DNA from: Octopus vulgaris
Lineage: Eukaryota
Assembly (NCBI GenBank): GCA_951406725.2
Contig: OX597823.1
Location: 78,306,001-78,370,000, forward strand
Direction: 5' to 3'
Length of the DNA stretch: 64,000 nt
Shown: piece by piece, positions 2,534 to 30,645 of the stretch
Layout: each line of letters opens with the position of its first letter
Numbering within the stretch: the stretch's first letter is position 1
Position numbers and translations under genes: made by a program
Notes under the pieces: model-generated
Database searches by the model: none
What the model was told of the DNA's origin: nothing
Seen by the model: only the letters and a program-made list of their open reading frames with translations

Positions 2534-2568
2534 ATTTATGAGTACCTTTTTTTTTTTTTCTGTTTCAG

Positions 2569-2783
2569 TTGTAAAGCAACAGATTATTTAGAAATTTACC
2601 AACAGCTAGAAGGACCTAACAACTATTCTGTAATCCGACGTTACTGTGGAAAAAACAATCCTGGTCCAATCCTAACCGAGAAAGGAGTGAAGATTTTGTT
2701 TCACTCTGATGACGATGGAACAGACATGGGTTTCCGTGCCAGATACAAATTTATTCGAAAAGATGAAGTAAATAAAGATACAG
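2569..2783 (+). CDS. Internal coding exon, C-terminal half of a CUB domain (CUB-domain extracellular protein, cubilin/tolloid/SOL-1-like)
   Basis: Poly-T tract then tttcag acceptor at 2567-2568; G|gtaagt donor at 2784. Reads CKATDYLEIY...RRYCGKNNPGPI...VKILFHSDDDGTDMGFRARYKF, matching the CUB motifs DYLEI, RYCG, F.SD and GF.A.Y. Confidence 0.93.
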
Positions 2784-12816: not shown

Positions 12817-13008
12817 ATTGCAGCAACACTGAATTAGTCAATGATAGATGGGGAGGTTTAATCCAGAGTCCAGAATATCCTTTAAAATATAAACCAGTTA
12901 CACATTGTGAATGGCAAATCCAAGCATCTTCAAACAACAGTAAAATTTTACTTCAGTTTACAGTTTTTAAATTAGAAGGCCCAAGTAGTCCAGACCAAAA
13001 GGAAAACA
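12817..13008 (+). CDS. Internal coding exon, N-terminal half of the next CUB domain
   Basis: Poly-T tract then ttgtag acceptor; A|gtgagt donor. The phase-1 join with the previous exon gives G+AT = Asp. Reads DCSNTELVNDRWGGLIQSPEYPLKYKPVTHCEWQIQASSNNSKILLQFTVFKLEG (CUB motifs G.I.SP.YP..Y, C.W.I, I.L.F..F.LE). Confidence 0.93.
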
Positions 13009-18138: not shown

Positions 18139-19024
18139 GGTACAGGGAATATATTGTTGTCTGTATTATGCAAAAATGAAAAGAACACACTGACATCTCA
18201 TTTCAACAGATATATTTACTAAAATTACATAAAAATATCTTGAAATACCAAAAAATAAATTTATTCAATAAAATCGTCATTGGCTTCAACCACGTCCTCT
18301 GAACAGCTTTAGAATCTCCTGCAACTCTTTTGAATGAACTCCTTGTTTAAGTCAGTGAATGCTGCAACAATCCTTGCCTTCAGTTCATCATCGATGTTAC
18401 AAGGAGTTCTGTTGGTCTCTTGCTCAAAGGTGCTCCACACATAATAATCAAGGGGGTTACAGCCGAGGGAGTTAGGTGGCCAGATTATGTGGTCATAAAA
18501 ATTGTCTGACAGCCATGACTGGGTTCTCCTACTTCTGTGACATGGTGCAAAATCCTGTTGCCAAACATAGGTTCTTCCATCAGCCACCCTCTTGACCCGG
18601 AGCAGCACTACCTCCTCCAAGCACTTGATGTAGGCTGCCATGTTGAGCCTGAGGCCATGTGGGAAGATGAATAGAGGCATAACGTTGTCATCACTAGTGA
18701 TCACTCCAAACACTATGATGTTGCCAGGATTCTTGATTTTTATCACTCTCGGTACATGTTTTGGGAACACAGTAGACCAACAGTTGTTCTGTGTGTTCAC
18801 CATCTGTTCATATTGGAGCTTCCTGCAGGAATGCCGAGCAGTACAGCATGTAGTTTCCACATTTCTGGCAGAGTGAATTGTGTCATGGTGCTTTTTTTCT
18901 CACAGACAGTGAACAACTGGTCCTACTATACTGTGTAGTCAACAAAATCAAAAAAAAAAAAAAATCAATGTGCATGTGTGAAATAAAAAATATAAAATGA
19001 CAGCAATTTACCCATTGTACCCTA
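18136..19024 (-). mobile_element. Internally deleted Tc1/mariner (maT/DD37D-like) DNA transposon
   Basis: Imperfect TIRs cagggtacagggaatatattgttgtc / gacagcaatttacccattgtaccct within TA runs; encodes a transposase C-terminal fragment. Confidence 0.85.
18309..18760 (-). pseudogene. Tc1/mariner DD(34-37)D transposase fragment (catalytic C-terminal half)
   Basis: VFGVITSD...WQQDFAPCH...WPPNSLGCNPLDYYVW motifs; N-terminal HTH region and first Asp are absent; SPD(L/C)NP is degenerate. Confidence 0.85.
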
Positions 19025-19517: not shown

Positions 19518-20687
19518 ATGAAAAAATGTGGGTGCCAAGTAGATACATTGTGATGGTGTATTCTTGTTGCACATAAAATCTCTTCAGCAATAGTTTCGAT
19601 CACTGGTTGGACAAGTGTGTTTTTTATAACCCCAGGCCAACAAATGCTGTGTGAATGAATATCGTAGATGAAGATTGCTTTATATATCTGAGCATGTGCC
19701 TTGTGTCTGTGTTTTCCCCTCCCCCACTCAACTAGTCCTTGATAACTGGGATTGGTTTGTTTCCATTCCTGTTACATAGTGGTTTGGCAAAATAAACAGA
19801 ATTTTTTTTTAAATAAGAGAACAAGTACCAGACTTAAAAAATAAGTTATGGGCTGCAGTCCAATGACTAAAACAAATGAATAATAAAAAGTAAAAAGTTA
19901 CCTCATGATGATGATTTTAATCATCATCATCATACAAATTATTGAAGGGATTTTCTTTGGCCAGTTGCATTTCCATTGCCATCCTTCACTTGTTTCCCAG
20001 TAAGGTATGATTTCCTTTAGTCTTTCGAATAAAGAACAGTTCAACAGCCAGGCATGTTTTTGCAGCAGCCTGCAGAGCCACACAGTAAGAATGGCACTGA
20101 ATTATCAGATAGTGAAGGAAACCCCTTATGTACAAGACCAGAAATATTTCTGTGTGTGCATATGTATGTGTCTGTGCATGCTAAACTCAACTCTCTTTGT
20201 GCTTTCGTGTGTACTGCACCTAACTAGGCCAGGTGGCACAACCTATGCATTAAGGCAGCAAATGACTTCCTAGCAAACTGGTGTGTGCAGCATCTCAGAT
20301 CACACCATGAGAGACACAGAAAGGCATCTACTCTCATCACAAAACAGTTTTCCTTGCCTGGCCTGCAAGCATATATCTGCATTTCACTGCAATCCAAGAA
20401 GTCACTTGAGCAGCCACAGATATTGGACTATGCAACACAATTATCTTTCTTGTACTCAAGAGACTACCGAACAGACAAGCAAGTAATATATATATATAAA
20501 GTAGCAAACAGTCAATAGTATCTCTCTATCTAATTTATTTTCATATATATATATATGTATGTATGTATATATGATTCATATGTAAGTGTAACATATATAT
20601 ATATATATATTATATATATATATATATGTATATATATACACATATATATATATAGTAACAGACTGTCAATAGTATCTCTCTGTCAAT

Positions 20688-20743
<56 letters not shown>

Positions 20744-21096
20744 ATATATATATACATATACATATATATAACATATATATATCTATAATATATATGTAAT
20801 ATACATGTGTATATGCATGGGTATATATCTATAATTGTGTTTATACATGTGTGTATATATATATATATATATAATCAATATAGGGTGGCAAAAAAAATTT
20901 GTAGAATTCTTTTGCCACCAGCGGCCTAGTGGGAAAAAAATTAAATAGTCATAGACCATTTTTAAGTTCAACATCAACAATCAAGGAACGGCCATAATAG
21001 GCCATTCACCCACTAGAAATAACAGCCAAAGCTTCAACCGCAAATAAAAATTAACTCCGTAAACCAGGAGAAAATTTAAAAAACATTTACCTTGTA

Positions 21097-21203
21097 ATTT
21101 CTTATACGATATACCGTTTCATCTGCTGATTAATGGTAAACTAACCTGATTAAATTAAATCAAGCCAATCTTCCAAAGGCCCTCAGATTCTTCAGTAAGA
21201 AAT
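21097..21203 (-). ncRNA. Type I hammerhead ribozyme motif (copy 1, antisense to host gene)
   Basis: Reverse complement of the motif at 21444-21550. Confidence 0.85.
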
Positions 21204-21443
21204 AGCCCAAGTCGGAACAGATATTTTCACGAGGCAAATCCGACCTTGCCAAGGTTATATCTGACCTAAAATTTTCAAATCGTCGCACTCGCGCCAAATT
21301 TATCGGCAGCAAATAAATATAAGCCGTCGATTCCATTACGGAATTAACCAGAAAACGAGTGCGACGATTTGAAAATTTTAGGTCAGATATAACCTTGGCA
21401 AGGTCGGATTTGCCTCGTGAAAATATCTGTTCCGACTTGGGCT

Positions 21444-21550
21444 ATTTCTTACTGAAGAATCTGAGGGCCTTTGGAAGATTGGCTTGATTTAATTTAATCA
21501 GGTTAGTTTACCATTAATCAGCAGATGAAACGGTATATCGTATAAGAAAT
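21444..21550 (+). ncRNA. Type I hammerhead ribozyme motif (copy 2)
   Basis: Stem I ATTTCTTA(21444-51)/TAAGAAAT(21543-50); core CTGAAGA(21452-58); stem II ATCTG(21459-63)/CAGAT(21522-26); GAAA(21527-30); stem III ACG-gtatat-CGT; GUA cleavage triplet at 21540-42. Confidence 0.88.
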
Positions 21551-21937
21551 TACAAGGTAAATGTTTTTTAAATTTTCTCCTGGTTTACGGAGTTAATTTT
21601 TATTTGCGGTTGAAGCTTTGGCTGTTATTTCTAGTGGGTGAATGGCCTATTATGGCCGTTCCTTGATTGTTGATGTTGAACTTAAAAATGGTCTATGACT
21701 ATTTAATTTTTTCCCACTAGGCCGCTGGTGGCAAAAGAATTCTACAAAATTTTTTTTTTGCCACCCTATATTGATTAATTATGAATTTTCTGGTTAATTC
21801 CGTAATGGAATCGACGGCTTATATTTATTTGCTGCCGATAAATTTGGCGCGAGTGCGACGATTTGAAAATTTTAGGTCAGATATAACCTTGGCAAGGTCG
21901 GATTTGCCTCGTGAAAATATCTGTTCCGACTTGGGCT

Positions 21938-22044
21938 ATTTCTTACTGAAGAATCTGAGGGCCTTTGGAAGATTGGCTTGATTTAATTTAATCAGGTTAG
22001 TTTACCATTAATCAGCAGATGAAACGGTATATCGTATAAGAAAT
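21938..22044 (+). ncRNA. Type I hammerhead ribozyme motif (copy 3)
   Basis: Same motif exactly 494 nt downstream of copy 2 (CTGAAGA 21946-52, GAAA 22021-24, predicted cleavage after 22036). Confidence 0.88.
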
Positions 22045-22164
22045 TACAAGGTAAATGTTTTTAAAATTTTCTCCTGGTTTACGGAGTTAATTTTTATTTG
22101 CGGTTGAAGCTTTGGCTGTTATTTCTAGTGGGTGAATGGCCTATTATGGCCGTTCCTTGATTGT

Positions 22165-22207
<43 letters not shown>

Positions 22208-22952
22208 TACATACATATATAGATACATGCATAAATGCAGATTGATAGATAGACATAGATACATACACATATACATGAAGACACAGACAGACCTCTAGTT
22301 ATTTTTAATGGAAAACAATTAGTGCTTGTGTGGTGAGGTTTATATCAGCATGAAGTGAACAAAAACTGGTAATGAGTTATCTCTTTTCATACCATTCTCT
22401 ACTTTTGATTTTGCATCTTATGAGATCAATGAATACGAAATACCACATAAAATGCTGGGGTCAAAATAATTGAAAAAAAAACCTTGAAGTTGATACGCCT
22501 ACATGGCTGCAGTCCAATGACTGAAACCAGCAAAGAAGAAGAAAAAATGGGATCAATGCTTTTTATCTGTACAGAGTCAATAATATGATCAGAGATATTA
22601 TACTGATGTTGATTCAGTTGAATCAACCAACTCCCCTATGTCACTTTTGGCTCTCGACCAAAAATAAGAAATCAATTTTCCTCAGAATTTTTTAAGTTAC
22701 CATTACAAACCAAGTAATGTTTTTTGATTTGGAAAAGAACAAAAAAGCTTCGTATTTACCTAGTCAAGCTTATCATCATCATTATCATCATCATCAGCAT
22801 TATCATCATCATCATCATCATCATCATTTAATGCCCATGCTCCATGGTAGCATTGGTTGAACACTAATATATGGCTGTCTTTTCAGCACGCACACATATA
22901 TATGAATGCATATATGCAAGTATGTGTGTCTATATACATGTGTGTGTGTATG

Positions 22953-30515: not shown

Positions 30516-30645
30516 ATGAAGGTTGCCCTCATGCAGTGGTAAGAATATACTCCAACTCTCATGCAATTAAGCCAGATCAGGAGCTCTGTGGTTCATGGAA
30601 ACAAGGATATTCCTATGTAGTAAAATCCCACGCCATAAAATTGAG
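30516..30645 (+). CDS. Internal coding exon, middle of the same CUB domain
   Basis: cttttgtctcttcag acceptor; AG|gtaag donor. The phase-1 join gives A+AT = Asn. Reads NEGCPHAVVRIYSNSHAIKPDQELCGSWKQGYSYVVKSHAIKLR, with the second CUB Cys pair C...LCG. Confidence 0.88.

Follow-up and report, generated by a model that had tools for sequence, protein, structure and literature searches.

Here we report that a 1297-bp insert in an intron of an octopus CUB-domain gene is built only from a non-coding 494-nt unit carrying a type I hammerhead ribozyme motif, and that this unit forms a dispersed family whose insertions have the layout of Penelope-like elements (PLEs). We hold with high confidence that the element is best read as a non-autonomous PLE of the kind known in animals as non-LTR retrozymes. 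It departs from described retrozymes in its extended stem II and its clear PLE insertion footprint, and it is not a new element class. An initial annotation of the window (the whole 64,000-nt stretch of DNA that was analysed) had proposed a young hammerhead retroelement with Penelope-like mobilisation, which is supported by near-identical dispersed copies, by the PLE layout and by covarying stems.

The insert and its host intron

The insert consists of 484 nt on the minus strand followed by 813 nt on the plus strand within (TA)n (Table 1), with the coordinates and the single-unit make-up that the initial annotation had given. The arms are joined at their 5' ends, point outward and both run into (TA)n. 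The reference unit of the window, hereafter U, was the query for all searches. The plus-strand copies are one substitution apart over 319 nt, and homopolymer length is the sole difference between the left arm and the first plus-strand copy over U1-422; all three copies share a substitution that is absent from every other sampled locus. The description of the insert as CpG-rich and without a long ORF was also right. Its observed/expected CpG ratio is 1.06, compared with 0.33 for the 64-kb window, and a 1300-nt slice over the insert reaches 1.09, the highest value of the slices computed (the next being 0.72). The G+C content is 36%, and the longest stop-to-stop frame has 93 aa.

The insert sits, as annotated, in an intron of a CUB-domain gene, which is 17.5 kb long and flanked by two plus-strand exons. 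The upstream exon matches tolloid-like protein 2 of Octopus bimaculoides (P0003), a protein with five CUB domains, a weak LDLa match and no protease domain match. The host gene is spread over ~880 kb on the plus strand, and the two plus-strand ribozymes are sense to its pre-mRNA. A likely transmembrane segment and an LDLa-like repeat were noted in the host gene, the tolloid-like label of which comes from the relative. With about a thousand candidate places for the family, its presence in this intron seems incidental, and this analysis gave no evidence for an effect of the insert on the host gene. The same intron contains a 196-aa frame (window 18312-18899, minus strand) with no Pfam match, which we take to resemble a fragment of a Tc1/mariner transposase.

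Table 1. Features of the insert and its surroundings, by position in the window (for the last row, by locus)
Feature	Position	Strand	Details
Host gene, position also listed	2567-2758	+	
Upstream host exon, CUB domain	12817..13008	+	residues ~604-668 of P0003 homologue
Left (TA)n-rich target flank	20543..20873	none	
Left inverted arm	20872..21355	-	484 nt, 0.98 unit: U431-494 then U1-422; tailed (L) end adjoins (TA)n
Type I hammerhead 3, inverted arm	21097..21203	-	core starts 21195; predicted cleavage after 21105 (minus strand)
Right arm	21356..22168	+	813 nt, 1.65 units: U1-494 then U1-319; short (S) end adjoins (TA)n
Reference unit U	21356..21849	+	494 nt
Type I hammerhead 1	21444..21550	+	core CUGAAGA at 21452; predicted cleavage after 21542
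Predicted cleavage-to-cleavage monomer	21543..22036	+	494 nt; strongly structured, z = -4.85
Type I hammerhead 2	21938..22044	+	core starts 21946; predicted cleavage after 22036
Right (TA)n-rich target flank	22167..22276	none	
Downstream host exon	30516..30645	+	residues ~668-711 of P0003 homologue; canonical splice sites
Loci of further extended-stem-II hammerheads	L058, L063, L068, L078, L079, L111, L124, L128, L153		

Structure and conservation of the hammerhead motif

The hammerhead in U is composed of an 8-bp stem I, the core CUGAAGA, a stem II of 68 nt in all (a 5-bp closing helix around a long hairpin), GAAA, a palindromic stem III and GUA. All type I elements and both predicted plus-strand cleavage sites are as first annotated. 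The motif is, however, not the minimal hammerhead of PLEs (min-HHR), in which helix III is absent or very short: here stem II spans 68 nt, and the 10-nt palindrome of stem III is of sufficient length (3 bp and an A-U pair) for the stem to exist in a monomer as well. A descriptor scan of the 64-kb window found three hammerheads, every one within the insert, and among 3000 shuffled units none passed the strict descriptor and three passed the loose one. The covariance-model scan that had been suggested as a check did not recover the motif: the Rfam hammerhead models gave no match to the insert at the gathering score, nor at E<=10. Extended-stem-II hammerheads escape Rfam, so such families may be undercounted.

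Within the family of U (family A), no variants were found at the 12 core positions, compared with 121 at 437 other positions. Stem covariation, which had been named as a test of the ribozyme, was seen in an alignment of family A with the sibling family B described below, where 8 of 17 pairs are changed on both sides and 95.9% of cells pair, compared with 32-45% when the partners are slid; these counts come from 10 hand-picked rows of two related families and so represent few independent events. The invariant core and the stem covariation suggest that the ribozyme is under selection, and the motif is probably capable of self-cleavage. A good-looking motif is no guarantee of activity, since only one of nine tested frog retrozyme dimers cleaved in a 2026 preprint (bioRxiv 10.64898/2026.07.22.740005). 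For one ribozyme by itself, the predicted energy minimum has the core paired with stem III; the active fold costs 1.8 kcal/mol more.

The central two letters of stem III occur as A-U, A-C and G-C across loci. They are adjacent on one strand and can pair only between two copies, for which the predicted duplex energies are -13.6, -7.1 and -17.5 kcal/mol, respectively. Despite the presence of the mismatched A-C form in four loci, these predictions favour a double-hammerhead fold between copies. In this respect U resembles the dimeric type I hammerheads (Cervera and de la Pena 2014, PMC4209133), which have a palindromic stem III and can form a double hammerhead between tandem copies; it differs from them in that its stem III can form in the monomer and its stem II carries a long hairpin insertion.

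Insertion layout in family A and in coding Penelope-like elements

The search of the octopus genome with U returned 976 candidate places on many contigs, confirming the expectation of other genomic copies, and the 40 best-scoring of these, a sample biased to long copies, contain 235 matches, with full-length units mostly 97-99% identical. Six of the 40 loci are single-armed, and the rest have back-to-back arms. Among 34 clean junctions in 33 loci, 31 combine one short end (S, ~U319) with one tailed end (L, ~U427), and the others are one L+L, one S+S and one S with another end; locus L033, the centre of which is rearranged, is outside this count, and its ends are also L and S. The coupling of S with L (31 of 33, P = 7e-8 against an expectation of 50%) is accompanied by a fixed position of the outer ends, which fall at U312-325 or U422-431 in 68 of 72 arms (the nested loci L059 and L064 excluded) and nearly always adjoin (TA)n in the flanks of the 40 loci. 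Inner ends, by contrast, are scattered over the unit, and neither arm type is regularly longer (17 vs 14). This combination of fixed outer and variable inner ends led us to reject L1-type twin priming. The arms are up to 4443 nt long and cross many cleavage sites, and no target-site duplication is readable in (TA)n. In none of the 40 fetched loci does the unit continue into an ORF, and the idea that U is the pLTR of a coding element gives way to that of a free-standing non-coding unit.

Family A thus combines the hallmarks of retrozymes (a short tandemly repeated unit with its own type I hammerhead, non-coding sequence of low G+C content with no LTR-type organisation, and a dispersed multicopy family) with those of non-autonomous PLEs, namely tandem copies joined to an inverted one that is 5'-truncated, a tail confined to one end, and a (TA)n microsatellite target. 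An ORF with reverse transcriptase (RT) and GIY-YIG domains between the repeats, as in autonomous PLEs with their pLTRs, is absent.

The same genome was searched for a coding partner, with a GIY-YIG scan that led to a family with a 781-aa frame and protein searches that led to three further coding families. The 781-aa frame has RVT_1 and GIY-YIG matches (L116-L131), and several copies show an overlapping frame of up to 479 aa before it and tandem repeats in the 3' region. Frames of 1271 aa and 727 aa align to the 781-aa frame by BLASTP (E 4e-10 and 4e-07, respectively), with no full-length Pfam match; from their motifs, we tentatively read these three young families as Poseidon-, Neptune- and Hydra-like. 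In the 727-aa family, all three back-to-back pairs are short at one end and tailed at the other (tail ~73 nt), with both ends in (TA)n, and the same holds for six of eight fetched pairs of the 1271-aa family, the other two being unreadable, with a tail of ~55 nt. Hence, the short end is paired with a tailed end in 9 of 9 readable pairs of coding PLEs, as in family A. We infer from this shared pairing in (TA)n that U is moved in trans by a PLE protein, with no partner among the four coding families: blastn of U against their loci found no homology in their own sequence (the genome holds thousands more PLE-like candidates), and the matches at these loci are nested copies of U or its sibling, or are at chance level.

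Several features of the coding families were recorded along the way. The 1271-aa family (L166-L180) has a long Asn-rich stretch and a 3' hammerhead-like motif with the non-canonical core CUGAUGC. The 727-aa family (L181-L183, L032:1-1650) carries a short hammerhead ~1 kb past the stop codon, and its C-terminal part has 18570 candidates. A coding family at L141-L155 has a long microsatellite-like 3' region that holds a small back-to-back piece with the motif common to the retrozyme-like families, apparently captured.

Related non-coding families occur in the same genome. The sibling family B, which is older, has a unit of ~487 nt, ~70% identical to U, with 1690 candidates and the same two end regions; its ribozyme adopts the fold of that in U with different letters (core CCGAUGA, 73-nt stem II), and its stem III palindrome exists in two compensatory forms (loci L091-L115, e.g., L098:1558-1690). 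Because family B keeps the unit length and the ends at ~70% identity, the non-coding unit has long been mobile as such. Family C (L184-L192, L134:6052-6346; 2057 candidates), considered as a coding partner of U for its shared end motifs, was rejected, being a non-coding hammerhead unit in nine loci. Its unit is ~590-630 nt long with an extended-stem-II hammerhead (seen in L184), and its insertions lie back to back in (TA)n with a U-like tailed end. More type I hammerheads with other sequences, a 42-61-nt stem II and a mostly palindromic stem III were observed, several of them back to back (Table 1). This suggests a larger group of extended-stem-II hammerhead elements in the octopus genome.

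Like metazoan non-LTR retrozymes (PMC7229834; bioRxiv 10.64898/2026.07.22.740005), U is a non-coding tandem unit with one type I hammerhead each, a G+C content below 45%, a strongly self-paired monomer and co-occurring PLEs. At 494 nt it exceeds the 170-400 nt of the units in PMC7229834 and lies inside the 51-972 bp range of the 2026 preprint; the 68-nt stem II distinguishes it from the retrozymes of both accounts. These retrozyme descriptions, as available, do not mention arms that lie back to back in (TA)n and couple a short end to a tailed one, the word 'inverted' occurring 0 times in the accessible text of PMC7229834. Repbase matches were reported for 24 of 57 Xenopus families (bioRxiv 10.64898/2026.07.22.740005), whereas U has no pLTR homology in the four coding families.

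Partial tandems, an inverted 5'-truncated copy, a one-end tail, a (TA)n or AT-rich target and a hammerhead upstream of the end sites are shared with EN+ PLEs (Penelope/Poseidon, Neptune, Hydra and Naiad; PMC8557442, PMC11167929), from which U differs in having no ORF and an extended rather than minimal hammerhead. The tail of U is ~108 nt, compared with 30-40 bp in EN+ PLEs (PMC8557442, PMC11167929) and the shorter tails of the two octopus coding families. The layout of tandem and inverted copies with a tail at one end and (TA)n targets was described for PLEs by Craig et al. 2021 (PMC8557442). Non-autonomous Chlamys PLEs such as MRC1 (PMC8557442) are likewise non-coding derivatives with multicopy head-to-tail insertions; as a rule their 3' ends match an autonomous family and most are without a hammerhead, whereas U has a hammerhead and no partner among the four families. 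A literature search returned no report on octopus or cephalopod retrozymes; repeat libraries lay outside it, and the unit may carry another label there. The octopus repeat annotation PMC13282606 and its supplement, as available, contain the word 'ribozyme' 0 times, its consensus library being outside this comparison.

RNA template and tentative insertion mechanism

Family A is young, and the variants in its arrays report on the RNA template. Substitution distances average 0.4% inside an arm, 0.6% from one arm to the other at a locus and 1.5% between loci. Since the inter-arm value is near the intra-arm value and below that between loci, both arms of a locus come from one source or were homogenised later, as gene conversion after insertion could do. 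In 10 of 38 loci, including that of the insert in the window, a variant unique among the sampled loci is present in every covering unit, as a monomer circle or a parent with uniform units would give. In 14 of the 38 loci a variant recurs in only some units, for several loci in both arms: every 2 units in L047, L050, L052 and L061, every 3 in L033, and every 5 in L062 and L066. The last two loci are unlinked and share one substitution every 5 units, with the same phase at the tailed end. Because several of the recurring patterns are not strictly periodic across both arms, a linear multimer or post-insertion conversion fits them as well as a multimeric circle does.

The route first proposed for this locus was that the plus-strand ribozymes excise a 494-nt monomer from host read-through, and that the monomer circularises and is converted to arrays by rolling-circle reverse transcription. 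It departs from our favoured reading in where the template comes from and how large it is. It accords with the loci in which every covering unit bears the unique variant, with arms that run across many cleavage sites, and with the accumulation of coral and mussel retrozymes as monomer circles (PMC7229834). However, when the whole insert is folded as plus-strand RNA, equilibrium folding pairs the antisense left arm with the full length of the first ribozyme and leaves only the second free. If this duplex formed before cleavage, host read-through would release no 494-nt monomer, and we doubt that an exact monomer is excised from the host pre-mRNA at this locus; one could come instead from a transcript with its start within the right arm. 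A single monomer circle also cannot give variants confined to part of the units without later conversion. A tendency of arms to stop at the cleavage site was looked for and found no support beyond a weak excess: 1 of 72 inner ends lies within 3 nt of it (1.0 expected), and 7 lie within 10 nt (3.1 expected, uncorrected P = 0.03). Taken together, we regard this route as rather unlikely.

We consider it improbable that U broke away from an autonomous PLE as its pLTR or 3' end, was inserted once in truncated form and expanded later by local unequal crossing-over. Crossing-over has been proposed for vertebrate retrozymes (bioRxiv 10.64898/2026.07.22.740005), and block duplication can yield periodic variants within arms, but it would have to account for 40 unlinked loci with many array lengths, two common outer ends and arms that are often both multimeric. 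No copy runs into an ORF, and the sibling family B has preserved a like unit length and like ends. An assembly or polishing artefact, or a chance hammerhead in a satellite, is hardly credible. Inverted copies within (TA)n pose a problem for assemblers, and no public contig examined covers a whole unit, yet 40 loci show the structure, with variants particular to the locus and differing junctions, and the joint between unit end and unit start is present in all four public runs compared (a circle and a tandem give an identical joint). The covarying stems and the failure of shuffled units to pass the strict descriptor speak against a chance motif.

None of the run contigs is on record as RNA, and 14 runs are RNA by guess only; U was also matched in runs of four other organisms. 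At the listed places, one run taken by guess as RNA (X1) has 17 A>G and 1 T>C differences, whereas the other three have 5-10 and 1-3, respectively. Five of the A>G places listed are private to X1; a U precedes each of them, and the 167-175 genomic units that cover them never have G there. This hints at A-to-I editing of the ribozyme strand, with alleles as an alternative.

For PLEs, in vitro work by Frangieh et al. 2024 (PMC11167929) placed the tail between two internal start sites of the RT and showed cutting and extension of both target strands; uncleaved RNA served as the main substrate, and insertion did not depend on ribozyme cleavage. For U, an autonomous PLE may supply in trans an RT/GIY-YIG protein that would bind a multimeric or circular unit RNA and nick both strands of a (TA)n tract. 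The L site (U~427) would give rise to one cDNA, and the S site (U~319), on the same RNA or a sister copy, to the second; each would extend through uncleaved ribozymes to a variable extent, and their truncated 5' ends would then be joined. The hammerhead, which could act as a dimer via the palindromic stem III, would cut tandem transcripts into unit and multi-unit RNAs, its cleavage being incomplete or blocked when the RNA is copied. The window copy would be one such insertion that landed in the intron.

We tentatively extend this scheme to a fuller model, which we consider possible and not probable as a whole. Each insertion would arise in a single concerted step, with both target strands primed by a PLE protein dimer at two fixed sites of one multimeric, possibly circular RNA. 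The arrays would record their template, a five-unit circle or its descendants in the case of L062 and L066. The octopus would hold a large undescribed group of extended-stem-II retrozymes with shared end signals, maybe A-to-I edited on the ribozyme strand.

PLEs have been named as a strong candidate for moving retrozymes (Cervera and de la Pena 2020, PMC7229834), and Li, Clavereau and Pollet 2026 (bioRxiv 10.64898/2026.07.22.740005) based the PLE link on co-occurrence and pLTR similarity and proposed local tandem expansion. A retrozyme-type unit with a PLE footprint beside the coding PLEs of one genome bears on the open question of how animal retrozymes move. With a 494-nt RNA, trans-mobilisation, priming at two sites and the choice between circle and multimer become directly testable.
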